Shown here: positions 2,543 through 47,401 of the stretch, piece after piece | How the letters are laid out: each line of letters opens with the position of its first letter | How positions within the stretch are numbered: position 1 is the stretch's first letter | IMG/VR virus record: IMGVR_UViG_3300044844_001006 | Coordinates: 1-62,215 of that record | Length of the DNA stretch: 62,215 nucleotides | Direction: 5' to 3' (one strand) | From: a virus | Lineage: Duplodnaviria > Caudoviricetes | The notes under the pieces: model-generated | Databases searched by the model: none | Told to the model about the DNA's origin: nothing | What the model saw: the letters and a program-made list of their open reading frames with translations, nothing else | Program-made: the position numbers and the translations under genes

Positions 2543-3312
2543 CAGGCAGCCCTCCGCTTGAGTTTCACGGTCACGATGTAGCGCTCCACCACCGCGCCAC
2601 CGCTGACGATCTGATCGCGCTCCAGGCCCAGCTCACCCACCGGCCAGAAGTCGGTAGCGCTAGGGCGGGCTGCGATCGTGGCCGTGAACCACGCCTTCAC
2701 CGCAGTCCAACCGGCGGAATTGGTGACCCCCCGAACGGTGCGCACCTCAGAGGCCACCAGGGGCCCCCGTGCCACGAATCCCCCGGTGGAGGTGGGCTCC
2801 AGGGTTGGGCCATCCTCAAAGGCCTCGGGCTGATCCAGTAGCGCCAGCGTGGTGGTGCCGAGGGTGATGGTGCCGTAGGCAGGCAGGAAGGCATCACCCC
2901 CTAGGCGGGCCTTCTCGTTCTGCCGTAGCAGCACCGCCAGCTGCTGCGCTGCATCGATCAGGGTGAACGACACCTTCACCCATGCCCCGCCTTGCACCGT
3001 CTCGCCAACCGGCGCCCCGGTGAACCAACACGCCAGGCTGGTGACACTGCGGCCATGGGCGGAGCAGGTCAGCGCCACGGTGGCCCCCACGGCACGGCTG
3101 GCAATGGTGGGCGACTCCTGAATCTTGGCCGCCTGCCACGCATCGAAGATCGTGCAGGTAGTCACCCACTGCGCCGGGGTGCAGAGGCCCGCCACGCTGA
3201 ACCGCCTTGCCGTCAGCCCCTGCTCCGTCTCCGCCTCGGCATACCCGATCGGCTGCGCCTGCAGGTATCGCAGTGTCAGGGTGGAGGCTCCGTAGACGAG
3301 CTGAATGCTCAT
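2542..3312 (-). CDS. Putative distal tail/minor tail protein
   Basis: 256-aa ORF directly after the tape measure gene. Confidence 0.6.
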   Translation of the reverse strand: MSIQLVYGASTLTLRYLQAQPIGYAEAETEQGLTARRFSVAGLCTPAQWVTTCTIFDAWQAAKIQESPTIASRAVGATVALTCSAHGRSVTSLACWFTGAPVGETVQGGAWVKVSFTLIDAAQQLAVLLRQNEKARLGGDAFLPAYGTITLGTTTLALLDQPEAFEDGPTLEPTSTGGFVARGPLVASEVRTVRGVTNSAGWTAVKAWFTATIAARPSATDFWPVGELGLERDQIVSGGAVVERYIVTVKLKRRAA

Positions 3313-3322
3313 CAGGGCACCC

Positions 3323-6300
3323 TCAGAACATCCGCGCTGTCGTCTTCGCCAGCTTCAGGCCGGAACCGTCCCCGCGCACCCCGACCGACACGTTCCACGC
3401 TTTGCGCCTCAGCTCGGCTACTTCTTGGCTCAGGTTTCCAACCGCGAGGGCCAGATGGGCTACTGCCGGATCGGACCCACCACGCAGTACGCCAGCACCG
3501 CCGCCGAGGGCCCCGGACTCCTTCAGGCGGCTGGTGATAGCAGCAGGGATCACCGTGCCCTTGGAGGGGGGCGTCCATAGGCTGTTGGCGGGCCGGTTGA
3601 TCAGGGACAGAGCGCCAGATGCTGACAGGAACGCCTCCTGCCCCAAGCTCATCCCGCTGGGGCCGTCGTTGATGCGGTACGTCTGGCCAGCATCCACAGG
3701 GCCACCCGTGAAGCGGGCAGGGGGGAGGCCGGCGGCAGAGGCGAGGGAGAGGTAGAACCTCTCAGCAGCGTTGGCCGCATTGCCCATGTTGGTGCTAAGC
3801 CCTGCCGCCTGGCCCTTAGCTGCAGCGGTGGCTTTGGATGCCACGCCCATGAAGTCCTTGATGTCGTTCGCAGCGGGCCCCACCCCCTTACCCAGAGCCT
3901 GTCCGATCTCGTAGTAGCCCTTGCCGGTATCCCGCACCCGGAGACCCACATCCCGCGCCAACTGGGCAAAGGCGCTCTGCTGGGCAAGCGGCACCTTCAG
4001 GCTGTCACCCACGCTCTTGAACTGGTCGGCGGTGCCTTTGGCAGCCTTGAAGGTGCCATCTGCGGCGAGCTGTAGGCCCTTTGCCTCGGCGGCAGCAAGG
4101 GCCCTATAGATCGCTTCCTCGTTGGTGGCATCAGCGATCCTGCCCTGTATGGGCTGGATTTGCTGAAGGATCCCCAGGTTTTCATTGGCAATCTGCCTGT
4201 CAATATCCTTGATTTCTAGGTTTGCCTTTGCCGAGGCTTCCGCTTCTTTGTTGCTTTCGTTGATTGCTTTTGTTACCTCAAGCTCTGCTTTTTTGTACTC
4301 TGCATTTGCTTTCCTTACCTCACTGTTTGCCTCTGTAAGTGCCTGTTGCTGCTTCAATGCCAGCAGATCTCTTTCTAGTCCCTGCTGTGCTACTAATCCT
4401 TGAAACTTGGCGCTCATGGCGGCAGCTTCTATCTCTTCACCTCGGCGCTTAATTTCATCCAGCTCTCGTTCGCTTGCCTTACGCTCTTGAGCATCTTTTA
4501 GCTCAAAGTCGTTGCGGCTTTTGATGATACCAAAGCGGGAATCCTCTAGGCTGATCAATGCCTGGCCAAGATTGATGCTGGCCTGCTGTACGGAAACAAG
4601 CGAGTCGCTCTGTGCTTTGCTGAGCTTGTCCTTTGCAGCGCTAAGGGAAATTGTATTATCAACCTCAATCAGTCCTAGCCTGTTTTGCTCTTTTTGAGTA
4701 TCAAGTAAATCCTGTGCAATCTTTTTGGTGTCTCCTTTGGCCTGATTAACTTTGCCAGTGTTTTCAACCTGCTTAGTTGTCTCAATGTTTAGTATCTTAT
4801 TGAGTTCTAGAGTCTCTACCAGTCTTTGCTGAAACTCTTGGCTTGCCTTTCTGGCACCATCGTTTCCCGTGGCTCCTGCGGCACCGGAAAAAACACTAGC
4901 CCAAACCAGCTTAAGACTTTGAGAGGCTTTATCTAGTAATCCGACTTTCTGGGTGAGGTCAACAACGGCATTAGCCGTGTTAGTAATAGGTGCAACATTT
5001 ACCTGTGCCGCTTTGTTTATGGTAGGTGCAACGTCTTTGTTGAACTTCGCCGACAGATCTATGAGCTTAGCGAGCTTATCGAGATACGAGGCGACTTCGG
5101 GTAGAGACTGACCAACCGTTGTAGCTAAGTTGCTAGTTGCATTTTGAATCTTTTTAATGCCGCCTTCTATTGTGCTGGTTGCCACTTCACTTGCCTTAGC
5201 TGCAGCACCGGCACTGCTAACTTGGTTATCAAGTAGTTGGTTGTACGATTTTAGTCCATCATTCAGCAATGGCTGTACGGCAGCCTGCGCTTCAACCGAC
5301 CCGAGCAAGATAGCCAGCTTGTCAGCCGCTCCTCCTCCCTTAGCCTGTACATCTGCAAGGAAACCACCAAAGCCACGGGCCTGTAGTCCCGCTAGGTCAA
5401 AGCTAATTCCCAGGCTCGCCGCTAGGTCTTTTGCCTGCTCGCTTGGCTTGAGGATCGAGCTAATCGCCTGACGGATCCCGGTAAATGATTGAGCTACCGG
5501 GACTCCTTTCAAGGTTGCTGTAGCAATGGCAGCATTCAACTCCGAGATCGGAATACCAGCGGCAGCAGCAACAGATGCCACCGTGCCGATCTGCTCGGCA
5601 TACTCCCGAACCGTGATAACACCGTCGGCTTGGGTTTGCACAAAGCCGTCTACGATGCTCGTAGCATCAGCCGTGGTTAGCCCGTATGCGTTGATAACTC
5701 CGGTAACGGCCTTAGTTACGTCGTTCAGCTCGGCGAAGCCACCTGATGCCCCCAGTGATGAAGCCCTAAGGATGTCCGTGATCTGTGCAGTAGTCGTAAA
5801 GCCGCTGGAAGCAACATCATAGGAGGCCTTTAATAGCTCAACTCGGCTTACATTGCTATCAAGCTCAATCGAAAGGTCGAACAGTTTATCCTTAAGATCA
5901 CTTGAGTTGATACCTAGCGTCCTTACTGCCGCTCCCGCTGAATCAAGCTCTGTAATTTGCTTGCCGACAAACTGAAGCGCTGAGCCAGCCGAGAGAACGG
6001 CCCCAGCCTGCAGGGCAAAGCCCTTAAGCTCTTGCCCTAATCCCTTGATGATGCCGCCGCCGCCACCTAACGCTTTGTCTACTTCCTTTTGTGTTTGCGC
6101 TATCTGCCTTTGAGCCGCAACGAACTCTTTTGATCCGATGGCGGCTTTGTTCAGGGTTTGATCTAGCTCACTAAGCCTGGTCTTGAGACCCCCCAGTGTA
6201 GTGACGCTTGAACCAACGCCCTTATCCAGCTCTTTTAGTTGCCCGCGCAGCCGCTCCAGCAGCTTGTCGTTGGCGGCAAAGCCCTGTTGAAACTCCTGCC

Positions 6301-6394
6301 CCGCCTGCTTCCCCGCCTGCCCGATCTGCCGCGAGGCATCGAGCACACCCTTTACATCGGCGGTGACTTTAACGACCCACTCGTTGCCTGCCAT
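3323..6394 (-). CDS. Tail tape measure protein (TP901-like core)
   Basis: 1023 aa, Ala/Gly/Gln-rich and helical, with core motifs such as ASYDVASSGF, EYAEQIGTVASVAAAAGI, ISSILKPSEQA and a C-terminal RFTGGPVDAGQTYRIN motif. Confidence 0.92.
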   Translation of the reverse strand: MAGNEWVVKVTADVKGVLDASRQIGQAGKQAGQEFQQGFAANDKLLERLRGQLKELDKGVGSSVTTLGGLKTRLSELDQTLNKAAIGSKEFVAAQRQIAQTQKEVDKALGGGGGIIKGLGQELKGFALQAGAVLSAGSALQFVGKQITELDSAGAAVRTLGINSSDLKDKLFDLSIELDSNVSRVELLKASYDVASSGFTTTAQITDILRASSLGASGGFAELNDVTKAVTGVINAYGLTTADATSIVDGFVQTQADGVITVREYAEQIGTVASVAAAAGIPISELNAAIATATLKGVPVAQSFTGIRQAISSILKPSEQAKDLAASLGISFDLAGLQARGFGGFLADVQAKGGGAADKLAILLGSVEAQAAVQPLLNDGLKSYNQLLDNQVSSAGAAAKASEVATSTIEGGIKKIQNATSNLATTVGQSLPEVASYLDKLAKLIDLSAKFNKDVAPTINKAAQVNVAPITNTANAVVDLTQKVGLLDKASQSLKLVWASVFSGAAGATGNDGARKASQEFQQRLVETLELNKILNIETTKQVENTGKVNQAKGDTKKIAQDLLDTQKEQNRLGLIEVDNTISLSAAKDKLSKAQSDSLVSVQQASINLGQALISLEDSRFGIIKSRNDFELKDAQERKASERELDEIKRRGEEIEAAAMSAKFQGLVAQQGLERDLLALKQQQALTEANSEVRKANAEYKKAELEVTKAINESNKEAEASAKANLEIKDIDRQIANENLGILQQIQPIQGRIADATNEEAIYRALAAAEAKGLQLAADGTFKAAKGTADQFKSVGDSLKVPLAQQSAFAQLARDVGLRVRDTGKGYYEIGQALGKGVGPAANDIKDFMGVASKATAAAKGQAAGLSTNMGNAANAAERFYLSLASAAGLPPARFTGGPVDAGQTYRINDGPSGMSLGQEAFLSASGALSLINRPANSLWTPPSKGTVIPAAITSRLKESGALGGGAGVLRGGSDPAVAHLALAVGNLSQEVAELRRKAWNVSVGVRGDGSGLKLAKTTARMF

Positions 6395-6395
6395 G

Positions 6396-7100
6396 TCAGC
6401 TCTCCGGTGTCACGACGTACTGGGTGGGGTTGGTCCAGCTGATGGCGTACTGATCCAGCACCCCGAGCCCCTGCCCCGGCGCATCACCGCCGATCGGCAC
6501 CGCACGGCACCCCGGCAAGAGGCTGATGATCCGCTGCGTCAACGCCTGCAGGGCCGTCAGATCAACTGCGGGTGAAGGCACCACCACACCAGCAGCCACG
6601 GCAGCCGAGGCGATGGTGCTGCCAGCTAGGGCATAGCTGAGGGTGAACGGTGCGGTCGTAGTCGCAGCGGTGACCGTGAAGGTGCCATTCAGGGCAGCGA
6701 AGGGGGCAGGGAGAGCGCTCACCGCTACCTGCTTGCCCACGCCGAAGCCATGGGCCGCCGCGAAGGTGAGCGTGGCCGTGCCTGATGCAAGGGCGGCATT
6801 GGTAATCGCCTGCGGGGCCACCTGCAGGGCAGACCACTCGCTCACGTACAGCCGGAACTGTGGGTTCAGACCCGTCTCCCCGGTAAGCATCGCCTCGGGG
6901 CTGTAGTCGGGGTTGTTGAGGATCACCACCTCCAGGCCAGCCACGGCCACCCCCTCGGGCAACTGCTCATTGCGGCGCACCACGGCGATGGCAGGGATTG
7001 CCGTACCGCCCCGTGGGGTGTAGCTGCCCAACGCGGGGGCCACTACGGCATCAGTCGCCAGCAGGTCGTACAGCTCCTGTGCAGTGGCGGGAAGGCTCAT
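6396..7100 (-). CDS. Putative tail terminator/completion protein with an inserted beta-rich domain
   Basis: 234 aa, immediately upstream of the tape measure gene. Its internal ATLTFAAAHG...NGTFTVTA domain is shared with 10601-11434 and 56864-57553. Confidence 0.55.
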   Translation of the reverse strand: MSLPATAQELYDLLATDAVVAPALGSYTPRGGTAIPAIAVVRRNEQLPEGVAVAGLEVVILNNPDYSPEAMLTGETGLNPQFRLYVSEWSALQVAPQAITNAALASGTATLTFAAAHGFGVGKQVAVSALPAPFAALNGTFTVTAATTTAPFTLSYALAGSTIASAAVAAGVVVPSPAVDLTALQALTQRIISLLPGCRAVPIGGDAPGQGLGVLDQYAISWTNPTQYVVTPES

Positions 7101-7149
7101 GCCTCAGCTTTCCCTGCAAGTGGGCCGATCTGGGAGCCGGGTGGCGTTG

Positions 7150-7190
7150 CGCTTCCCAAACGGCTTACAGATGGGGTAGTATTGAAAAGT
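7150..7190 (+). promoter_or_regulatory. Candidate promoter/operator for repeat-RAMP locus A
   Basis: TAGTAT -10-like hexamer just before the first repeat tract. It is preceded by an ACGGCTTA motif also found upstream of locus B. Confidence 0.45.
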
Positions 7191-7193
7191 CAG

Positions 7194-7525
7194 TGCATCG
7201 CCGCGCTCTGCCCCGCATCGCGACGCCGCGCCTCGCTCCGCATTGGGGCCCTTCGGGGCCCACAACTCACCACTGAGCCATTTGGCTTTCTGGTGGGCTG
7301 ACGCCTACCACGCCGCCACCCGGCGCATCGCTAAGCGAAGCCTCGCCTCGCGCAGCCTTGCAACGGCCCCGGCTTCGGCTGGGGCACAACCCATCACAGA
7401 GCTTCATGTTCTCTGGTGGGCTGATAGCTCACCACTCCGCATTGCTGCGCAGATCGCCGTGCAGCGCCGCTGCGCCTCGCCTAGCGAAGCCACGCAAACC
7501 GCAGGGGCCTTGTTATCAGGGCCCA
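7194..7525 (+). ncRNA. Array A-left: three units of (Y/A)GC-NN pentamer tracts separated by conserved hairpins (candidate guide RNAs)
   Basis: Tracts at 7194-7243 (10 pentamers), 7309-7363 (11) and 7433-7502 (14). Each is followed by a GC-rich hairpin, and units 2 and 3 are preceded by a hairpin ending CTGGTGGGCTGA. Confidence 0.8.
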
Positions 7526-7552
7526 CTCAACCATCCTAAGAGGATTCAATCA

Positions 7553-8182
7553 ATGGCATTTCGCCGCTTTGAGCTAACGCTTGAGGGCACACGCCCGCTC
7601 ATTTGCAGTAACCCCTGCACAGTTGATCCACTAGGCCCCCACGCCGAAGCGATCAAGTATTTCACCGGCCTCAAAAAGAACCGCAATGAACACGCCCTGA
7701 GGCGGCTGCATTGGTTGTTCTCCGGCTACTGGGGAACCGAAGGCACATTCACCTACGGGCCCAGCTTGGATGGTGATTCCAAGTTTAGTGGCTTTGCTGA
7801 GCCATTCCTGCCTGCTCAGAACCTGCAGCGTTGCATCCGCGATGGTGCCACGGCGTGGAAGCTGGGCAAGGACACCAAGCGGGCAATCGTTGTCGAGGGT
7901 GATGCACCGCTCGCTTACGACGGCCCCACCGATGCCGAGCTGATGTACGACGACCCGCGCTTTGCCTCAATCGCTCCCACAGGAAGGGGCACCATGGCAG
8001 TGCGGGTAAGGCTGCCCCAGTGGAGCGCTACCTACCGGCTCCTGGTGAATGACGAGATCATTGATCCCACCACGCTGGCAAAGATCCTAGATCGTGCTGG
8101 CATTGCCGAAGGCCTCGGCACCTGGCGCCCCATGCACGGTCGCTTTCAGGTAGTACAGCTCGAAGAGATTGAGGTGGCCTGA
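7553..8182 (+). CDS. RAMP/Cas7-like protein A (209 aa)
   Basis: N-terminal strand FELTLEGTRPLI, central FLPAQNLQRCIRDGA and C-terminal glycine-rich loop GIAEGLGTWRPMHGRFQV match RAMP-superfamily motif order. ATG 7553 follows an AAGAGG Shine-Dalgarno-like site. Confidence 0.72.
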   Translation: MAFRRFELTLEGTRPLICSNPCTVDPLGPHAEAIKYFTGLKKNRNEHALRRLHWLFSGYWGTEGTFTYGPSLDGDSKFSGFAEPFLPAQNLQRCIRDGATAWKLGKDTKRAIVVEGDAPLAYDGPTDAELMYDDPRFASIAPTGRGTMAVRVRLPQWSATYRLLVNDEIIDPTTLAKILDRAGIAEGLGTWRPMHGRFQVVQLEEIEVA

Positions 8183-8697
8183 TGAATGACCCCAAGATTG
8201 CCTCAATCGACGCTTACCACCTTTACAAGGGCCAGACCATTTCGGCCGATGTTGTGTGGGAGCACTTCGCAAATCGGCGACCCGACACCGTGGCCAGTTG
8301 GGTCATGGAGCACGGGGACGAGGCGCTGGCTAGGGCTGCTCGAATGCCTCAGGTTCTGCTTCAGGTTCGTGGCTGGCTTGACCGTGATCGCAGCAAAGCG
8401 GAGCTTCCGCCGCTGGTGATGAACACGGCAGGTGGCGGCATCAACGTGCTCACCGATGACAAGGCCTCAACCTACCTGAACGATCAGGCGTTCCAAGGGT
8501 TGCGCCGCCATCAGCGGGCATCCACTCGGCTTGTTGCCGCCGTAGATGAATCCAAGCTGACCGGTGCCGCACGTCGAGAGCATCAGAACCGGATCAACGT
8601 GCATAGCTTCATTGCTGCATCCGCTCAGGGCGCCCAGCGCCAGCTCAGGCTCCTGAGGCAGAACGGGAAGAAGGCACCGAAGCTGGAGGGGGGCTGA
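8182..8697 (+). CDS. Hypothetical protein, accessory gene of locus A
   Basis: 171 aa, TGATG-coupled to the RAMP-like gene and enclosed by the arrays. Confidence 0.8.
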   Translation: MNDPKIASIDAYHLYKGQTISADVVWEHFANRRPDTVASWVMEHGDEALARAARMPQVLLQVRGWLDRDRSKAELPPLVMNTAGGGINVLTDDKASTYLNDQAFQGLRRHQRASTRLVAAVDESKLTGAARREHQNRINVHSFIAASAQGAQRQLRLLRQNGKKAPKLEGG

Positions 8698-8855
8698 TGT
8701 GGGATCCAGCTGATTTGATCTTGCGACTTCTTGGCGGGGAGTCCCTTAGCCGCAGGCAAAAGGCGTGCATTCGGCAGCACTTGCAGCGTGTTGTCGGCCG
8801 TTTTTCACCCAGCGAATCCGCAGCAGCGGAAGCGCTGGGCCTGGCGGACATCTAA
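8697..8855 (+). CDS. Small hypothetical protein (52 aa, MWDPADLILRLLGGE...)
   Basis: TGATG-coupled to the previous gene and hand translated. Confidence 0.5.
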   Translation: MWDPADLILRLLGGESLSRRQKACIRQHLQRVVGRFSPSESAAAEALGLADI

Positions 8856-8887
8856 TGACCTGGGCATCCGCAAGGTGTAAGCCCTAG

Positions 8888-9222
8888 AACTGCGCCGCTC
8901 GCTACGTCGCCTTTCACCGCCGCCCCGCTCTACGCGCCGCACCGCACAGGGGGTCTCATGCGAGGCCCCACACCTCACCGCTAAGCCCCCTGGCTCTCCG
9001 GTGGGCTGACGCCTACCACGACGCGACACCACCCAGCGCCGCTCGACGCAACGCAACGCGCCGCACCGCACAGGGGGCCCAGTAATGGGCCTCACACCTC
9101 ACCGCTGAGCCATTGGTTCTCCGGTGGGCTGATGCCTACCACTGCTCCCTGCGCCGCGTTGCAAAACAGCGCTCCGCTTCGCATCGCACCGCACCGCACA
9201 GGGGCCCCTTTTTGGGGCCCAC
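8888..9222 (+). ncRNA. Array A-right: three units of CNC/YGC-NN pentamer tracts with the same hairpin scaffold
   Basis: Tracts at 8888-8947, 9017-9071 and 9140-9199 all end CGCAC CGCAC AGGGG plus a hairpin. The linker CACACCTCACCGCTRAGCC...CTCCGGTGGGCTGAYGCCTACCAC is repeated. Confidence 0.82.
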
Positions 9223-9254
9223 CCCAATCATTCACAGACACCCCCGAACACACC

Positions 9255-9566
9255 ATGAAAACCTTCTCAGTTACATTCAGCCTTACTCTTGATGTTACCT
9301 GCGCAGATCATTTAGATACTGATTGGGTAGCAAAGCAATTCGCCTACAAAAGTGATAGGTTTTCTACCCTTTGTATTGCAGGCGATCCTGAGGGCGAGAT
9401 TGCAATACAGGCTGCATCATCCGGCATAGAGAGTATTCGAAGGTATGATAGCCCAAAGGTATCGGCGACTCCCAAATCCGAGGCTCCCGCATTTCCTGCC
9501 CGTACCGGAAACCGCATTACTGACATGCTTTCTAATCCAGCCATTAGAAAGATGATTGGGTACTAG
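9255..9566 (+). CDS. Hypothetical protein (MKTFSVTFSLTLDV...)
   Basis: ATG after a C/A-rich leader. AT-richer than the genome average. Confidence 0.65.
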   Translation: MKTFSVTFSLTLDVTCADHLDTDWVAKQFAYKSDRFSTLCIAGDPEGEIAIQAASSGIESIRRYDSPKVSATPKSEAPAFPARTGNRITDMLSNPAIRKMIGY

Positions 9567-9625
9567 TAGCCTCTCCCAGTCCACCCAATCCCCATCCCCT
9601 ACTTACCATTATTGAGGATTTAGCT

Positions 9626-9988
9626 TTGGCTCACTACTGTGCTCCAGGTTTTCAGTTTGATGGAAAAGGATTTAGCCCAACGAATACACCGCCAAGCGTC
9701 AAGGCTGTGTGTGAAGGGTTGTTTGCACTTGGCTCGGGCGTCACTTTGGCAGGAGAAAAGCGTCTGGCTTTTCTTGCTGCATTGCATCAAGCCATACAAG
9801 AAAAACACATTGATCTTTCAGATCCTAACCCTGTCGCTGGCATTGAATGGGAAACCTTAGTCCCTGGTGCTGAATGGGAAGCCTTAGTCGACACGGGCGA
9901 AGGAACAATCAAGGTCACAGTAGAATGGCGGGTATCTATTGCCCCGCTACCTGAGGCGTCTGATGCGCTGGGTCTGCTCCCCAGTTGA
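9626..9988 (+). CDS. Hypothetical protein
   Basis: 120-aa ORF, TTG start preceded by GAGG. Confidence 0.5.
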   Translation: MAHYCAPGFQFDGKGFSPTNTPPSVKAVCEGLFALGSGVTLAGEKRLAFLAALHQAIQEKHIDLSDPNPVAGIEWETLVPGAEWEALVDTGEGTIKVTVEWRVSIAPLPEASDALGLLPS

Positions 9989-10021
9989 CCCGGAAACCTG
10001 CCGCAACACTGCCAGCCCGCC

Positions 10022-10255
10022 ATGGAAGCCCCAGTCATGGAAGCCCGCTCCTGCCCACGCTGCGGCGCCCGATGGCTAGGCGAGCAGCTTTACTGGGCCA
10101 CCGGCAAGAAGGCCTCAGAGCTTGATCTGGCGGGCCTCGTCTGCAACATGGTCAACGATCCGGTCTGCATCAACCCACTTAAAGGCCATGAAGGTGGCGA
10201 CACCTGGGCCAAGCGCATGGAGCGGGTCAGTCAGCCGCTTAGTGCTGAGGCATAA
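10022..10255 (+). CDS. Small Cys-containing hypothetical protein
   Basis: CPRCGARW...LYWATGK...DLAGLVCN. Preceded by a GGAAACCT motif. Confidence 0.7.
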   Translation: MEAPVMEARSCPRCGARWLGEQLYWATGKKASELDLAGLVCNMVNDPVCINPLKGHEGGDTWAKRMERVSQPLSAEA

Positions 10256-10600: not shown

Positions 10601-11434
10601 TCAGAGCAGATCGAGGCCGACCTTGCCGTAACCGGCCAGGCTCACCTGGAACTTGATCACCGTGCCAGCAGTCTGCTCAGGCTGGTAGCTCTCAAAGAAG
10701 CCATAGCCGTACTCCACCTGCTTCCCGTTGTTCGGGCCGATGACGGCGTACTCAACCATCAGCTTCTCGCTCACGTTGAACTCTTCACAGATCCGCATGG
10801 CACGCCACGCAGGGTCGGCGAAGTTCATCGCCCCGCTGATGCTCCAGGTCTTGTCCCTGGCGGTAGGAATCGGGGTGTTGTAGCTGCCCGCCTCGTCGTC
10901 GTAGGTGGTGACCGATTCCTTGGTGGTGCTGTTGCTGGGCTGGATATTGGTCAGACCCAGCAGGCGGAACGGGGGGTCGGTGCCGTCGAGCAGGAGTGAG
11001 GGGGCCACCACACCAGCAGATACGGAAGCAGTGGTGATCGCCGAGCCGGTCAGGGCATAGGTCAGGGTGTGCGGCGATGTGGTTGTAACCGCCGTCACCA
11101 CGAACGAACCGTTGATGGTGGCGAACGGAGCAGGAAGATCCTTCACCACGATCCGCTTGCCCACCGTGATGCCATGGGCATCAGCAAAGGTCAGGGTTGC
11201 GGTGGTGGTGGTACTGACCGCATTGGTAACCGCCTTGGTGCCGACACCGAATGCAAAGGTATCGCCGGTTCCAGCCGTGATGATCTGGGCGGTGGAGCTT
11301 TGCAGGGTGGTGTTGTCGATGAACTTGCCGGTGCCAAGCCCGCCGAGGTTGACGCGGGTAAGGTCAACCGCTGAAGCCTTGAGAGGGGTGAAGAAAAACT
11401 TGAACCCGTAGGCCTGTTCCCACACTTGGGGCAT
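10601..11434 (-). CDS. Major tail tube protein with an inserted beta domain
   Basis: ESVTTYDDEAG...KTWSISG...GYGFFESY...IKFQVSLAGYG fits a tail-tube pattern. Neighbours the tail chaperone. Confidence 0.75.
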   Translation of the reverse strand: MPQVWEQAYGFKFFFTPLKASAVDLTRVNLGGLGTGKFIDNTTLQSSTAQIITAGTGDTFAFGVGTKAVTNAVSTTTTATLTFADAHGITVGKRIVVKDLPAPFATINGSFVVTAVTTTSPHTLTYALTGSAITTASVSAGVVAPSLLLDGTDPPFRLLGLTNIQPSNSTTKESVTTYDDEAGSYNTPIPTARDKTWSISGAMNFADPAWRAMRICEEFNVSEKLMVEYAVIGPNNGKQVEYGYGFFESYQPEQTAGTVIKFQVSLAGYGKVGLDLL

Positions 11435-13033: not shown

Positions 13034-13543
13034 ATGACCGACTTCCGCGCCGAACTGGATAAGACAAGAGGAGCCGAGGCGAGCGTTGAGCAAGTAGCTC
13101 AGATCGTCTACGAAAATGCCATGCTTGCAACTGCACCCGATCACGCCAAGCCGCATTGGCCAAGCTGGGCTGACCTTCCCAATTCAGATGCTCGCATCCA
13201 CGCGCTGAACACGGCTGAGATTATCCTCACCCGCTGGGGCCGCCCTGCAGCACCCGCGCCGAAGCCCATCCCGGTGAGTGAGCGGCTGCCGGAGGATGCC
13301 GACTGCCTGGTTATCCCGCCACTCGGGACAAGCACTTTCCCTCTCCGCTACTGCTGGCAGGCCAGTGAGATCATGCACTGTGGCCAAGCGCTACTGATCT
13401 GGGATTGGAAGCTGGTGCCGCACACGACAGATAAGCACTGGCCTTTCACGTACTGGCTGCCAGCGTCAACTCGATTCCTGCCGACGACGGTAGATCCTGC
13501 CAAAACCAACTCAGTAGCCGATCCCAACGAGGCTGAGGCATGA
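13034..13543 (+). CDS. Hypothetical protein with a DUF551-like module
   Basis: PIPVSERLP...TYWLP motifs. ATG after an ACC-rich leader. Confidence 0.65.
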   Translation: MTDFRAELDKTRGAEASVEQVAQIVYENAMLATAPDHAKPHWPSWADLPNSDARIHALNTAEIILTRWGRPAAPAPKPIPVSERLPEDADCLVIPPLGTSTFPLRYCWQASEIMHCGQALLIWDWKLVPHTTDKHWPFTYWLPASTRFLPTTVDPAKTNSVADPNEAEA

Positions 13544-14067
13544 GCACAGACTTCCGCGCCGCAGAAGGTGAGCAGTGGCTGCCGGTGCCTGGCTATGAAG
13601 GCTGCTACTCAGTCTCTTCACTGGGCAATGTCCGCAGCGAAAAACGAACAGTGCCTAACGGGCCCTCTCGTTATCGAGTCCTGGATCAAAGGATTTTGAA
13701 GCAATGGAAAAGCTCAGATGGGCACATGAGTGTAGAACTCTGTAAACAAAGCAAAACACAACGTTTTGTGGTTGGCAGGCTTGTTGCACATGCATTTTTC
13801 GGTCCCCCTCCTGCAGGGAAATATGTTCTTTATGGTCCTTTAGGCAAGGGCTGCAATGCTATTACAAACTTGTTTTATGGCACTTTGAGTAGAAATGACG
13901 CTTTAATGGCTGCCAACGGCACATTGATCCAGCCTGAACTTAGAGACAGCCGTACGCCGATAACGCTTCTACGGGTTGGGGCCTCTTGCGGTGGCGGTGC
14001 TCATCTTACTTCCGATGAGTGTCATTGCATCCTTACCTTGCTCGCCACACCCTTAGTCAACCCTTAA
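13540..14067 (+). CDS. NUMOD4-domain protein with a degenerate HNH region
   Basis: EQWLPVPGYEGCYSVSSLGNVRS is a NUMOD4 motif. The HNH region appears to lack the catalytic His (VLYGPLGKGCNAITNLFY). Confidence 0.75.
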   Translation: MSTDFRAAEGEQWLPVPGYEGCYSVSSLGNVRSEKRTVPNGPSRYRVLDQRILKQWKSSDGHMSVELCKQSKTQRFVVGRLVAHAFFGPPPAGKYVLYGPLGKGCNAITNLFYGTLSRNDALMAANGTLIQPELRDSRTPITLLRVGASCGGGAHLTSDECHCILTLLATPLVNP

Positions 14068-17601: not shown

Positions 17602-17790
17602 TCAGGCCAGCCTCTGCAGCCAGACCCGAGCACCCACGCCAATGGACCGCTCCAACATGCTCACGACCTTGTGAGCGGTGCGTTGGGGCAGGTTCAGGGC
17701 AACATCACGCAGTACCTGCCGGGTGGCCTCCTCATCCCTGGCGCCAACGGTGGCGTGGAGGGTCAGGAACGCGCGTAGGTCGGGTGGCAT
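17602..17790 (-). CDS. Small hypothetical protein
   Basis: MPPDLRAFL..., preceded by a GGCAAGCT motif. Confidence 0.55.
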   Translation of the reverse strand: MPPDLRAFLTLHATVGARDEEATRQVLRDVALNLPQRTAHKVVSMLERSIGVGARVWLQRLA

Positions 17791-17927
17791 GGCGCGGCGT
17801 TGCGTTTCCTTAGCTTGCCGTGGTGGCTTAGGAAAGTGCAATGGCTTATGATGGGCAAGCCGGAGGGTTCCCTGTTCTGCGCAGGGACCGATCTACCTCC
17901 GGCACCCCCTTCACCACAAGAGAAACC

Positions 17928-19166: not shown

Positions 19167-19589
19167 ATGCCTGACGCCACCACCCCCAACCTCCTGCACT
19201 GCCGGTTCTGCGGGAGCACTGATGCCAACTTACACGACGAAAACTTTCATAACTTTGTTGAGTGCGGCAACTGTGAAGCAAAAGGGCCGGCTTTTAGCTA
19301 TGATGAAACTGACAGCATGGATAAAGCTATCGCTGCCTGGAACCAGCCCAGCCCTTGGCAGCCGATTGAAACGGCGCCAAGGGATGGGACTGATTTCATC
19401 GCCTACAACGAGTTCACGGGTCCTTACATCACGGCAGCAAAGTCAATTTTCCCCATCGCCGCGCCGCCTGATGGCACGATCAGGTTTCCGATGCACTACT
19501 GGCATGGGCAAAAGGGTACTTGGTTCCCCGAGCCAACCCACTGGCAACCCCTCCCCAGCCCACCCATCACCCCCAGCCCCCATGCTTGA
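19167..19589 (+). CDS. Lar-like (restriction alleviation) Zn ribbon fused to a DUF551-like domain
   Basis: LLHCRFCG...VECGNCEAKGP...AIAAWN, then WQPIETAPRDG...PTHWQPLP. Confidence 0.7.
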   Translation: MPDATTPNLLHCRFCGSTDANLHDENFHNFVECGNCEAKGPAFSYDETDSMDKAIAAWNQPSPWQPIETAPRDGTDFIAYNEFTGPYITAAKSIFPIAAPPDGTIRFPMHYWHGQKGTWFPEPTHWQPLPSPPITPSPHA

Positions 19590-34552: not shown

Positions 34553-35092
34553 TCATGCGCTCACCCTCTCGCGTGGCAGCTCCAGCCCCAGCCGTTCCAG
34601 GGCCTCCACCACGTCAGTCAGCGAGGTCACGCCGAACTTGCGGATGTCCAGCAGGTCGGTAGGGGTGAGCTGCATCAGGTGGCCCACGGTGTTGATCCGT
34701 GCCCGCTTGAGCAGGTTGTATGCGCGGGCCGTGCGGAGGTCTAGCTGCTCGATCGGCACCGAATCATCGAATGTGGCGGAGATCCCCTGGGGATGACCAG
34801 ATGGCAACGAAACCAGTTGCGCTGCCGTGGTGGCCTTATGCAGCGACCCCTGCAGCTCCGCCAGGCTGGCCTCAAGGCGATCCAGCCGGGTGAGCCATAT
34901 CGATCCAGGCGGGGTGAAGGCTGCGGGCTCGGGCTCTGATTCGGGCTTGCCGGTCCATATCCGCTCCTGCGTGTTGAATCTGGCGCCGCAGGCATGACAC
35001 ACACAGCGGCGCCGCTTCGCTTGCTGCTTGGGCTGGTAGCGGGATTCGATGACCCGGTGACCAGTGGCCTTGCACTCGGGACAGGGGATCAT
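34553..35092 (-). CDS. NrdR-type Zn ribbon fused to an RNA polymerase alpha C-terminal domain
   Basis: CPEC...RVIESR...RRRCVCHACGARFNTQE, plus PIEQLDL..RAYNLLKRARINTVGHL...LLDIRKFGVTSL. Confidence 0.82.
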   Translation of the reverse strand: MIPCPECKATGHRVIESRYQPKQQAKRRRCVCHACGARFNTQERIWTGKPESEPEPAAFTPPGSIWLTRLDRLEASLAELQGSLHKATTAAQLVSLPSGHPQGISATFDDSVPIEQLDLRTARAYNLLKRARINTVGHLMQLTPTDLLDIRKFGVTSLTDVVEALERLGLELPRERVSA

Positions 35093-35201
35093 GGCCGGCC
35101 TCCCCTTATCCACAGGCTGTGAAACCAGATACCGCAGGCGAAGGCTTGCAGCAGCATCAGCTCCAGCACGATGGCCTTGAGGGCCTCGGGTGTGTAGAAG
35201 A

Positions 35202-38769: not shown

Positions 38770-39535
38770 CGCAGGCATGGCAGGCATGGTGCGGAAGGCG
38801 TGGCCGCGACTCGCAAGTGTTGGCGCGGCAGGCATGGCCCGGTCAGGTCGGAACGGCCAAGCCGGGAGGGCGTGGCAGGACAGGCATAGCAGGCATGGCT
38901 TCGGAAGGCACGGCCAGGCCAGCCCTGGCAGGCAAGGTGTGGCCACGGTGGAAGATCAGGCGCGGCTGGCTAGGTGTGGTCGGGCTAGAGCAAGGCACGG
39001 CTGGCAAGGCCTCCTGGGCACGAGCACGCGGGGCATGGCAGGCGAGGTAATGAGGGCATGGCTGGGTCTGGTGTGGCAGGGTGCTGCAGGCATGGCTAGG
39101 TGCGGAAGACAGGCTCGGCAGGCACGGCAGGCAAGGCGACGATGGGCCTGGAAGGCACGGCCAAGCAAGGCAGGCGTGGTAGCGACGGCAGGATCAGGCA
39201 TGGATTGGCAGGCACGGCGTGGCGAGATCAGGAGCGATCGAGGAACGGCAAGGGACGGCAGGCATGGCTGGCTAGGTGAGATCTGGCGTTACTTGGGCTG
39301 GCGAGGTGAGACGCGGCAGGCATGGCACGGTCTGGATGGGTAGGGACTGGCAGGCCTGGTAGGCAAGGCCTGGTGGTGTACGTCGTCGCAGGCACGGCGA
39401 GGGAGGCCCGGTGAGCATGGCGGGGCGAGGCGCCGCAGGCCTGGCTTGACGGCGTAAGGCACCGCACGATGCGGCTCGGCTGGCGTGTTGCGGTTGCCAA
39501 ATGGCAGCAGAATAGGGGTCCGAATGGGCCCCCCT
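38770..39535 (+). ncRNA. Array B: ~730 bp of GGY-NN pentamer repeats punctuated by GGCA/GGCT tetramers (candidate guide RNA array)
   Basis: For example GGCAT GGCTG GGTCT GGTGT GGCAG GGTGC. Recurrent GCAGGCATGG boundaries, ending in a GGGGTCC-GAAT-GGGCCCC hairpin. Confidence 0.82.
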
Positions 39536-39556
39536 CATTCACTATCCCCTGATGAC

Positions 39557-40123
39557 ATGAACGACTGGGACTTGATCAAGGCTGAACCTGAATACGTCTT
39601 CCGAATCGAAGATGGCGAGGAAGTGATGGGCATTGATGCCCAGACCGCTGGCAGCGAGCTAGACCGCATCAGGCGGCGTGATGGCACGATCCGCCCTGCT
39701 GCGGTGGTGGACGAGGCCAGGCCCGAGGAGGCTCCCTTGCATCCGGCGTTTGAGTGGCGCGATCCGGTGGCCGCTGAACAGTGGCGCGAGCATCAGGCCA
39801 CCACCCTAATCAAGGTGGTGCGGGTGGTGCCTGCTGCTCCAGTAGCGCCCCGCGTAGCATCGGTGCGGCCGGTGATGCAGGCGGCAGCACCGGTGGTCGA
39901 GCGCTATGACCCGATGGCTAAGGAGGTACTGGAGGCCGTGGGCCTAGTGGTGGAGGCTCGCCGCAAGGTTGAGGAGCTGAAACTACGCACCCAGCGCATG
40001 GGTGATCGCAAGTCGATGGCGGTGCTGGGAGTCGCCTTCGGGATGCTGGACGAGGCCCATGAAGCGTTGACTAACTGTCAGGTCAGCAGCACATGGGAGC
40101 GTCAACTGCAGCAGGCCCGGTGA
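39557..40123 (+). CDS. Hypothetical protein, accessory gene of locus B
   Basis: 188 aa, with GSELDRI...PAAVVDEARPEEAPLHPAFEWRDPVAAEQWR...ATTLI. Confidence 0.8.
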   Translation: MNDWDLIKAEPEYVFRIEDGEEVMGIDAQTAGSELDRIRRRDGTIRPAAVVDEARPEEAPLHPAFEWRDPVAAEQWREHQATTLIKVVRVVPAAPVAPRVASVRPVMQAAAPVVERYDPMAKEVLEAVGLVVEARRKVEELKLRTQRMGDRKSMAVLGVAFGMLDEAHEALTNCQVSSTWERQLQQAR

Positions 40124-46109: not shown

Positions 46110-46339
46110 AAAAGCAACGCTACGACCTTTTACGGCTTACAGCTTGTGATCTTGATCAATGCCTTGCGGCACCGTGCGGCAAGCGGGTTCGTGGCAGTTC
46201 CGAAAGCGGAGCAGCCCGCTGCAGTTCGGGTAGGATGGGCCCGTGCTGGCTAGGGCTCGACCCGCTGCCAGGCACAAAAAAGCCCCCCGTGCGGCCAGCT
46301 CGGGAGGCTTTCAGATCAACAATCGCGGAATTATTGTAC

Positions 46340-47401
46340 ATGACCGAAGCGATAGGAGCTGCCGATCAGGTAGCCGGTTTAGCTCAGCCCAGGATCACGC
46401 GACCAAGGTTTGCTCAGGTGCCAATCGCGCTGCTAGAAGCCTGCGCCGAGCGCAAGGGCACCCTGTTCGTTTACGCCTGGCTTTGGCATTACGCAGGGCA
46501 TGACGATCAGGCATTCCCATCCATCACCAGGCTGGCCCTGGAGTGTCGGATGAAGGTGGATGACGTTCGATCGAGCCTGCGCTGGCTTGTGGAAAACGGC
46601 TGGATCAGCCGGGTTGATCGGGTTGGGCAGACCGCTCTTTTTCACGTGAGGTACGAGCAGACCCCTCCCCCAAAAGGGGTACCCCTCCCCCAAAAGGGGG
46701 ATACCCCAAAAGGGGTACCCCACCCCTCCCCCAAAAGGGGTAGGGGACCCCTCCCCCAAAAGGGGGACCCTAACAAGAGGGATTTAACAAGAGGACTTGA
46801 ACAAGACTTAGAACCCCCCTTACCCCCCAGTGGGGGGAACGCGGGCGAGGGGCAGGGCGAGCTGATCACGGTCGAAGCCATGCCCGTTGCCGTGCCCGTT
46901 AACGCTGCGCTTTCCAAAAGCTCAGAAACGGCTAAGATTCCAGAACCACCACCGCAGACCATGGCCCTGACCAAGCCACCATGGAAGCCACGCTTCCAGC
47001 CATCACACGACCTGATCCCTACCGAGCTACTGCCCGTCCATCCCGAGATCTTGGGCTTCTGGGCCGTGAAAGCCGGAGCCCGCACACAGCTCGCCTGGGA
47101 TGGCCTGCTCAAACAGCTAGCCCTGATCCAGCAGGATCCTCTAGGGGGCACCGAAGCTGTTCGTAGCCAGCTCCAGGAGGGCATCGATCGGGCACCGATC
47201 AAGCCGTGGATGTCGGTCACTCACTCGCTGTGGCGCACCTACGGCATGAAGGGCTCCCGCAATGGTGGCAGCAACCGCCGCCCAACCCCTGAGGAAAACG
47301 CTGCCGCTGCCGTCGCGTTCATCCAAGCCCGCGATGCCCGCAAGGCTGCCGCTGCTGCCGCCGCCTCTCAGCAAACCCTGCTCGCTGAGGTGGTCGCGTG
47401 A
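46340..47401 (+). CDS. Replication initiator (N-terminal winged HTH)
   Basis: AFPSITRLALEC..KVDDVRSSLRWLVENGWI, followed by internal iterons as in lambda O-like initiators. Confidence 0.82.
   Translation: MTEAIGAADQVAGLAQPRITRPRFAQVPIALLEACAERKGTLFVYAWLWHYAGHDDQAFPSITRLALECRMKVDDVRSSLRWLVENGWISRVDRVGQTALFHVRYEQTPPPKGVPLPQKGDTPKGVPHPSPKRGRGPLPQKGDPNKRDLTRGLEQDLEPPLPPSGGNAGEGQGELITVEAMPVAVPVNAALSKSSETAKIPEPPPQTMALTKPPWKPRFQPSHDLIPTELLPVHPEILGFWAVKAGARTQLAWDGLLKQLALIQQDPLGGTEAVRSQLQEGIDRAPIKPWMSVTHSLWRTYGMKGSRNGGSNRRPTPEENAAAAVAFIQARDARKAAAAAAASQQTLLAEVVA
46661..46770 (+). repeat. Iterons, candidate origin of replication
   Basis: ACCCCTCCCCCAAAAGGGG at 46661, 46681, 46722 and 46747, plus a partial copy at 46703. 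Confidence 0.85.

Follow-up and report, generated by a model that had tools for sequence, protein, structure and literature searches.

A probable VIPR system with a CGC guide triplet in an uncultured temperate phage, and the match of one of its guides to a tail gene of sister phages

What kind of system is formed by a small RAMP-like gene that stands among the tail genes of a phage and is surrounded by six tracts of five-base repeats? This question is raised by the IMG/VR virus record IMGVR_UViG_3300044844_001006, which has been analysed as a whole (62,215 nucleotides (nt), hereafter the window; all positions are record coordinates), and in which three tracts lie upstream and three downstream of a gene for a protein of 209 amino acids (aa). 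An earlier note on this DNA, made from the letters alone, had taken the protein for a RAMP/Cas7-like one and the tracts for guides with a non-contiguous code, and had pointed to a recent report of phage Cas7-like proteins with GGY/NN repeat RNAs, named VIPR; such systems are indeed described in two bioRxiv preprints of 2026. We propose here, with a probability of roughly 0.8, that a temperate siphovirus-like phage carries at this locus, as cargo, a complete VIPR system with CGC as the guide handle, and that one of the guides, vrRNA2, is directed against the tail operon of sister phages.

VIPR has been described only in 2026, from examples in E. coli and Pseudomonas. According to the preprints, the guide RNAs (vrRNAs) consist of 9-16 YNNGG units and a 3' tail, one Vipr protomer sits on each unit, holding the GGY triplet and presenting the two variable bases (NN), in the reading of double-stranded DNA (dsDNA) one base is skipped at every unit, as a rule the wobble position of a codon, and the targets lie in competing phages and satellites (10.64898/2026.04.26.720920, 10.64898/2026.04.26.720927). 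The text of the first names seven VIPR types, the alternative repeats NNNGG, YNNNG and NNNNG, hammerhead-separated arrays in types I and V and six kinds of accessory (vap) genes; matches of at least 80% are counted there as targets, and no self-hits above this cut-off are reported in its sets (10.64898/2026.04.26.720920). In the system of Escherichia phage SUSP1 silencing was abolished when the NN pairing was disturbed, and the first base of the triplet (G1) is given as essential in the legend of fig. S12 (10.64898/2026.04.26.720920); in the SUSP1 Vipr, G1 is read by H17 and D177, and the pocket for the third base (Y3) excludes purines (10.64898/2026.04.26.720927).

The locus is placed among the VIPR systems because its protein is homologous to the Vipr of SUSP1 and has a Cas7-type fold. 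As a single sequence the 209-aa product matched the PDB chain 36pp_D ('SUSP1 Vipr protein') with E 1.4e-11, and as a profile of 14 sequences with E 4.8e-17, one solved chain being matched; the G-loop GLGTWRP was aligned to GVGDWRP. A further match was obtained to phrog_4652 (2.7e-26), and no family in Pfam. With tblastn 129 phage records were reached, among them Gordonia phage Trine (34.5% identity) and the SUSP1-like group Felixounavirus (27% identity over 98% of the length). The AlphaFold2 model (pLDDT 74.5, pTM 0.74) gave effector chains of the Cmr, Csm and Csf kinds as the top rows in Foldseek (E ~1e-3), and in VIA-align Csm3 (4qts_C) stood first (Z 9.8, root-mean-square deviation 3.3 over 123 residues), with Cas7-type RAMPs in 50/50 of the rows listed. 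The comparison with Cas7 folds, which the earlier note had proposed as a check on its RAMP call, thus returned Cas7-type RAMPs as the only best matches, and the call was borne out. Since the fold library is older than the Vipr structures, the direct link to VIPR is the sequence match to 36pp_D. Judged by these alignments, the gene product is a Vipr homologue, a small RAMP with a single RRM, a G-loop and a thumb.

The tracts have been read in the register Y3-N4-N5-x1-G2, as in the VIPR preprint. Over all 70 pentamers (10-14 in each tract, all on the + strand; Table 1) Y3 is C in 69/70, G2 is G in 57/70 and x1 is C in 49/70 and G in 0/70, and at N4 and N5 all four bases occur at near-random frequencies, the NN string being different in each of the six tracts. 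These counts agree with the near-constant, mostly CGC triplet with an almost invariable third C, and with the separate dinucleotide string per tract, that had been noticed earlier; the 'strict 5-nt periodicity' of the same description stands for the period, as the register does not slip anywhere inside the tracts, and falls for the single units, 13/70 of which are outside the Y..G frame, with tract 4 as the most worn (7/12 units fitting). A genome-wide CGC-NN score of at least 18/24 over 8 pentamers was reached by the six tracts and by one marginal place at 2983, and a test for at least 9/10 C and at least 7/10 G found five of the six tracts and no other place on both strands of the 62,215 bases. 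A period-5 signal elsewhere in the window, at 17773-17827, falls in ordinary coding sequence. The canonical GGY triplet of VIPR (YNNGG) is thus absent from the six tracts, which are nevertheless tandem five-base repeats of the VIPR kind (~9-16 units with a conserved triplet and hypervariable NN, adjoining vipr). A conserved structured tail follows 6/6 tracts: a GC hairpin (hairpin A), preceded by two semi-constant units, stands directly 3' of every one.

A second conserved element, in four copies, is found only between neighbouring tracts and is missing after the last tract of each array, so that the two-hairpin scaffold of the earlier description is made up of a hairpin in six copies and an element in four. 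In the latter, an upstream CYCACC pairs with an invariant GGUGGG around an inner stem-loop (hairpin B); over 27 distinct copies from the family 92% of 351 cells pair and 6/13 pairs show compensatory change, a level reached by 0/500 shuffles (slid controls 31-47%), and RNAalifold recovers the helix. The same GGUGGG pairs fully with a downstream 6-mer in 27/27 copies (hairpin C), eight different 6-mers being involved, where shuffling gave 8.1 on average and 14 at most. Hairpins B and C are mutually exclusive, as both use GGUGGG, and single-sequence folds choose either one or the other. Because each array of n guides has n-1 copies, the element is read as a putative processing or separation module with two states. 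The Rfam scan of 7000-9400 gave three chance-level rows only, with no ribozyme family at E up to 10 and no hammerhead between the guides, and ARAGORN found no tRNA in the 62,215-nt record; processing of the arrays by a ribozyme or through tRNA was rejected on these grounds.

The plan of the locus is kept in relatives. A scan of IMG/VR matched 28 stretches, 27 of which encode Vipr relatives (76-98% identity, and a 48% group). CGC-type tracts lie on the vipr strand in 25/27 of these loci, a count that depends on the threshold, so the survey of homologues suggested by the earlier note did find periodic tracts beside them; the core motif of the inter-unit element is present in 24/27, and a vap-like gene of 171 aa follows vipr directly in 25/27, the other two loci ending before that point. 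The vrRNA1 tract is identical in four relatives (L005-L008). In the logo of the CGC clade (38 distinct tracts, 380 units) Y3 is C in 93%, x1 is C in 76% (G in 2%), G2 is G in 81% and N4/N5 are flat; a frame that is kept while NN turns over is as expected of guides. Beyond these loci, a protein search gave 94 Vipr relatives, almost all metagenomic, the one named being 46% identical and from an Altererythrobacter-labelled metagenome-assembled genome, and no relatives were found in species-representative prokaryote genomes.

The 171-aa gene is taken as vap in the sense of the preprint because of its fixed position after vipr. Its product belongs to no family in Pfam, PHROGs or PADLOC and is not similar to the genes adjoining vipr in the phages wV8 or Trine. 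The model is helical (pLDDT 80.8), with a best Foldseek E of 0.4 and low-probability rows that include winged-helix regulators, which is a hint only, and a DNA-binding role would be a guess. A 52-aa open reading frame (ORF) at 8697-8855 was rejected as a gene, as no counterpart was found in the 27 related loci.

How could a Vipr protein accept CGC instead of GGY? The residues were compared by way of wV8 (Felixounavirus), which has the SUSP1 residue at 9/10 of the positions that the preprint names, position 175 being V and not T. The G1-contact residues H17 and D177 of SUSP1 correspond to S19 and T190 here, and K33, R138, W178 and R179 are kept. The homologues of wV8 and Trine, which have H and D, are accompanied by GGT-NN tracts and by a GGC-NN tract just after the gene, respectively. 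It therefore seems that the change of base 1 (CGC vs GGY) goes with the loss of both residues reading G1, and we infer that the CGC handle is used in this clade because these two residues have been replaced. S19 and T190 may thus set the choice of triplet, which could be of use for orthogonal VIPR tools.

Another triplet was noticed in two relatives with the same locus plan (L020 and L021; Vipr 77% and 76% identical). Their units are C-NN-Y-T (L020:2270-2480, 3680-3765; L021:2240-2480, 3750-3835), with T at position 2 in 75% of 60 units and C at Y3 in 100%, and in their Vipr proteins the H17 position is D (S19D) and the thumb is altered (AGRTSRGT); the text of the preprint names no YUC form of repeat (10.64898/2026.04.26.720920). 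More speculatively, the guide handle could have been re-coded more than once within one Vipr clade (CGC; YUC), so that Vipr/guide sets would be mutually orthogonal and protected from hijack on co-infection, with the inter-unit element as a new, self-contained processing module; we regard this as a tentative idea which, on balance, is rather doubtful. In Trine (L030, MH271318) the GGC-NN tract at 3120-3194, after the Vipr homologue gp41, lies inside the annotated coding sequence (CDS) gp40; it is probably an unannotated vrRNA, which would make the start of the gp40 CDS doubtful. In wV8 (L029, EU877232) the GGT-NN tracts surround the Vipr homologue gp95, and the repeat_region features 'DR_4' coincide with the conserved tails of these tracts (2262-2319, 3655-3712).

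For the search of targets, 45 family guides, each represented by nine variable units, were compared with 624,295 bases of DNA from related phages, namely the window itself, 16 whole records and a further 11 shorter loci; 0-3 skipped bases were allowed, and reversed guides served as controls. In every class the best scores were 13-16/18, with one 17 at skip 3, and over the 45 guides and four skip rules the sole perfect 18/18 was that of vrRNA2 at skip 1. The site, in a sister-phage contig (G001), is on the coding strand of the orthologue of the tail gene 6396-7100, which adjoins the cassette in the window. When vrRNA2 is extended by one unit, 20/20 NN positions match; the last two units of its tract, beside the hairpin, do not. 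The 20-base pattern has 15 exact matches in IMG/VR. In 15/15 the site covers codons 6-15 of the tail-gene orthologue, 15 nt downstream from the ATG; NN coincides with codon positions 1-2, and it is the wobble base that is skipped. They represent four DNA variants which differ only at the skipped bases and encode the allele TTAQGIYDLLA. A code with 1-nt skip is thus seen in silico, for vrRNA2 alone. The same pattern gave 0 matches in 596 billion bases of prokaryote genomes. The window's own allele, ATAQELYDLLA, which is shared by L005-L008, matches vrRNA2 at 18/20 NN, with the mismatches in the adjacent central units 4 and 5, and a third allele, with AV and three mismatches, was found in L003/L004. 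Only 1/15 target contigs has vipr in the flanking DNA examined. Neither a second carrier of the vrRNA2 guide nor a rival guide against the window's own allele was found in viral contigs, searches from which records near the window may be left out.

The searches of public collections covered four guides (vrRNA1, vrRNA2, vrRNA5 and vrRNA6). As 10 units, which gives patterns of the same size as that of vrRNA2 and thus a control for its 15 matches, vrRNA1, vrRNA5 and vrRNA6 had no match in viral contigs; vrRNA1 with up to 3 mismatches had none on the 16 whole related phage records, and vrRNA5 with 22 fixed bases had none in metagenome contigs. The 5 matches of vrRNA1 as 8 units were taken as chance (unrelated contigs of GC 0.37-0.63, with no common gene and no extension), and so were 37 metagenome matches of vrRNA5 with 18 fixed bases, which, duplicates apart, are related neither to the window nor among themselves. 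In codon phase, vrRNA5 agrees at 19/24 NN with 39770-39804 (+) of the window, inside ORF 39485-40123, and at 18/24 with the same place of G001; the gene concerned may be the one that vrRNA5 targets in a rival allele, no exact allele having been found.

The following mode of action is proposed. The six vrRNAs would be transcribed on the + strand, three before and three after vipr-vap, and processed; Vipr subunits would line up on each, one per five-base unit, every subunit clamping C1-G2-C3 and presenting the two variable bases, and the filament would read dsDNA as NN-x-NN-x, with a 1-nt skip, and block transcription. In the case of vrRNA2 the block would fall on the first codons of the sister phages' copy of the tail gene adjoining the cassette. 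Because vrRNA2 is exact on the rival allele and the carrier's allele has two NN mismatches, the system most likely switches off the tail operon of relatives with which the carrier competes in the same host, and the own allele of the carrier would be immune. The system is probably active. In this way the non-contiguous guide reading of the earlier note gains support from the identical mechanism in the preprints, the Vipr homology, the Cas7-type fold and the 20/20 match of vrRNA2, with binding and expression presumed.

The most serious alternative is that vrRNA2 serves self-regulation, holding down the carrier's own late tail operon, e.g. in lysogeny, with two mismatches tolerated, and that the perfect match to the other allele reflects shared ancestry of the site. 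The own site would be well placed for this, 15 nt inside the gene next to the cassette, its 18/20 NN would pass as a target under the at least 80% rule of the preprint (10.64898/2026.04.26.720920), and the in-phase 19/24 match of vrRNA5 also concerns an ORF of the carrier. Nevertheless, what vrRNA2 matches exactly is another allele, and of the 15 contigs that have it 14 show no VIPR in the flanking DNA examined; the two mismatches are in neighbouring central units, where two amino acids are altered (GI vs EL), as in an escape allele, and the sets of the preprint are reported to hold no self-hits and disturbed NN pairing to abolish silencing by SUSP1 (10.64898/2026.04.26.720920). Self-regulation is for these reasons considered improbable. 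It is still harder to accept that the locus is decayed or idle, with a VIPR-derived protein and tracts that no longer cooperate, for instance because CGC units are not bound. vrRNA4 is degenerate, five guides are without a target beside the one known for vrRNA2, and the G1 that is essential in SUSP1 (fig. S12 legend, 10.64898/2026.04.26.720920) is absent here; however, the CGC logo, the locus plan and intact vipr and vap genes are kept across relatives down to 48% protein identity, NN varies in a kept frame, the G1-contact residues have changed together with the base, and vrRNA2 has a perfect natural target, which makes this reading very improbable. Hardly credible at all is the view that the tracts have their role at the DNA level or on the minus strand (as GCG-NN RNA, recombination sites or terminators working in both directions) instead of being + strand guides: CG-rich pentamers do look alike on both strands and a match in dsDNA is uninformative on which strand is RNA, but the minus-strand triplet would read GCG and place a purine where the SUSP1 pocket excludes purines (10.64898/2026.04.26.720927), the + strand reading keeps G2, Y3 and the contact residues R151, W191 and R192, a hairpin stands 3' of each tract on the + strand like the tail of published vrRNAs (10.64898/2026.04.26.720920), and the tracts are on the vipr strand in related loci.

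It should be mentioned that several observations weigh against the proposed VIPR system aimed at sister phages. A target was found for one of the six guides only, and the first matched unit of vrRNA2 (AC) lies in the constant 5' flank, where it may agree by chance; the tail gene of the carrier itself, with 18/20, exceeds the 80% target cut-off of the preprint, so that self-silencing is possible. The model of Vipr is middling, with a pLDDT below 50 in the G-loop, and the Foldseek E is only ~1e-3. The link between residues and base rests on an alignment at 27% identity and on three clades. vrRNA4 is worn (7/12 units fit), and for this phage the transcription, strand, ends and processing of the vrRNAs are predictions from the DNA.

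In its general plan the proposed VIPR system is close to type II of VIPR, as in SUSP1 and a Pseudomonas fulva prophage. It has in common with them a homologous Vipr and a phage carrier, a two-gene core of vipr and an accessory gene with vrRNAs before and after, five-base units (fixed triplet and variable NN) with a structured element 3' of the tract, and a 1-nt-skip match in which the wobble base is skipped and the target lies in a competing phage. It differs from them in the fixed triplet, CGC here and GGY there, in S and T at the G1-contact positions instead of H17 and D177, in the extra inter-unit element, and in the target, which is a tail gene of sister phages here and satellites or lysis-lysogeny regulators in type II. 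Compared with the SUSP1-type wV8, the tail is a plain GC hairpin and not a pseudoknot, and the accessory protein is unrelated in sequence. The 'different variant' supposed by the earlier note is right as to the CGC triplet, the plain hairpin tail and the inter-unit element; the repeat form itself is not new, as C-NN-C-G is formally a YNNNG repeat, a form already named for VIPR (10.64898/2026.04.26.720920). Like the arrays of types I and V, the locus has structured RNA between neighbouring guides, but the element is not a hammerhead.

In class 1 CRISPR systems one backbone subunit binds per fixed step of guide RNA. The present protein shares with the Cas7 family (Csm3, Cmr4, Csf2, Cas7-11) the RRM/RAMP fold, G-loop and thumb (Z 7.5-9.8), whereas the predicted reading is different: a 5-nt step with 2 read bases and a gapped DNA target here, against a 6-nt step with 5 bases read in class 1 CRISPR. 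Unlike a class 1 CRISPR-Cas locus, with its repeat-spacer array and cas1/cas2 or multi-subunit effector, the phage genome showed no CRISPR-like tandem repeat array in the TRF search and no cas families among those of its ~97 ORFs that were scanned (PHROGs, 23; Pfam, 44), vipr being the only RAMP found. This corresponds to the minimal phage-borne locus with vap that is typical of VIPR.

The record is 100% complete by CheckV and has a GC content of 61%. Because it has genes for an integrase, a replication initiator, terminase, portal, major head protein, tape measure and tail proteins, the carrier is, by its gene content, a temperate siphovirus-like phage. The + strand cassette lies between minus-strand tail genes, in accordance with the antisense position in the tail operon noted before. 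In 7/15 of the sister-phage contigs the start of the tail gene, as read from their sequence, abuts the homologue of ORF 10022-10255 without intervening DNA, and therefore the cassette is an insertion relative to those phages; other sister phages have different cargo behind the same promoter-like stretch, which precedes such cargo in L065, L067, L072, L074 and L076. Since the site is empty or differently filled in sister phages, the region 7101-10021 is, on this comparison, a cargo hotspot between tail genes. The stretch in question, TTCCCA-18-TAGTAT, was not called by a consensus promoter scan, and would be the candidate promoter of the upstream array. The conserved leader of 23 nt before the downstream array is also found before first tracts in L017, L010 and L022 and may be a promoter or a processing signal. 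Two + strand ORFs, 9255-9566 and 9626-9988, belong to no family, have a low GC content at third codon positions (0.48 and 0.40) and travel with the VIPR cassette.

If the proposed VIPR system is accepted, the locus would give natural and independent support for the 1-nt-skip code from an uncultured phage lineage that is distant, rich in GC and provided with another triplet, and would present a case of phage-against-phage exclusion at a common cargo hotspot with a visible escape allele. The re-coded handle with matching residue changes, the natural target in sister phages and an undescribed inter-guide RNA element are what the locus adds.

Table 1. Features of the putative VIPR locus and of the adjoining tail genes (record coordinates)
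Feature	Position	Strand	Description
Tape measure gene	3323-6394	-	
Tail gene adjoining the cassette	6396-7100	-	
Carrier's own allele of the vrRNA2 site	7057..7085	-	codons 6-15 of tail gene 6396-7100, ATAQELYDLLA
Candidate promoter of upstream array	7153..7182	+	TTCCCA, 18-nt spacer, TAGTAT; read from sequence
Possible extra vrRNA1 unit	7191-7195	+	CAGTG
vrRNA1	7196..7261	+	10 pentamers (7196-7245) and hairpin A (7245-7261)
Inter-unit element 1	7262..7310	+	hairpin B, alternative hairpin C
vrRNA2, guide part	7306-7355	+	NN = AC GC CA GG AT TA GA CT CT GC
vrRNA2	7311..7385	+	11 pentamers (7311-7365) and hairpin A (7366-7385)
Inter-unit element 2	7386..7434	+	
vrRNA3	7435..7524	+	14 pentamers (7435-7504) and hairpin A (7504-7524); last unit of upstream array
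vipr	7553..8182	+	intact, 209-aa Cas7-like RAMP, G-loop GLGTWRPMHGRF
vap-like accessory gene	8182..8697	+	171 aa, mostly helical
Terminator-like hairpin with T run after vap	8771..8806	+	consensus match only
Conserved leader	8862..8884	+	GGGCATCCGCAAGGTGTAAGCCC; 23 nt, precedes first tract of downstream array
vrRNA4	8890..8969	+	12 pentamers (8890-8949), 7 fitting Y..G, and hairpin A (8949-8969)
Inter-unit element 3	8970..9018	+	
vrRNA5	9019..9093	+	11 pentamers (9019-9073) and hairpin A (9073-9093)
Inter-unit element 4	9094..9141	+	
vrRNA6	9142..9220	+	12 pentamers (9142-9201) and hairpin A (9201-9220); last unit of downstream array
Tail protein gene	10601-11434	-	

Some further observations concern other parts of the window. 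Inside the replication-initiator gene (46235-47401), iteron-like tandem repeats with periods of 20, 25 and 14 at 46661-46806 are probably the replication origin. At 34553-35113 (-) a protein of 186 aa combines an NrdR-type zinc ribbon with the C-terminal domain of the RNA polymerase alpha subunit, an unusual pairing for a phage regulator. A Lar-like restriction-alleviation protein is encoded at 19167-19589 (+), and a protein with the NUMOD4 motif, a DNA-binding motif of the homing-endonuclease type, at 13540-14067 (+).

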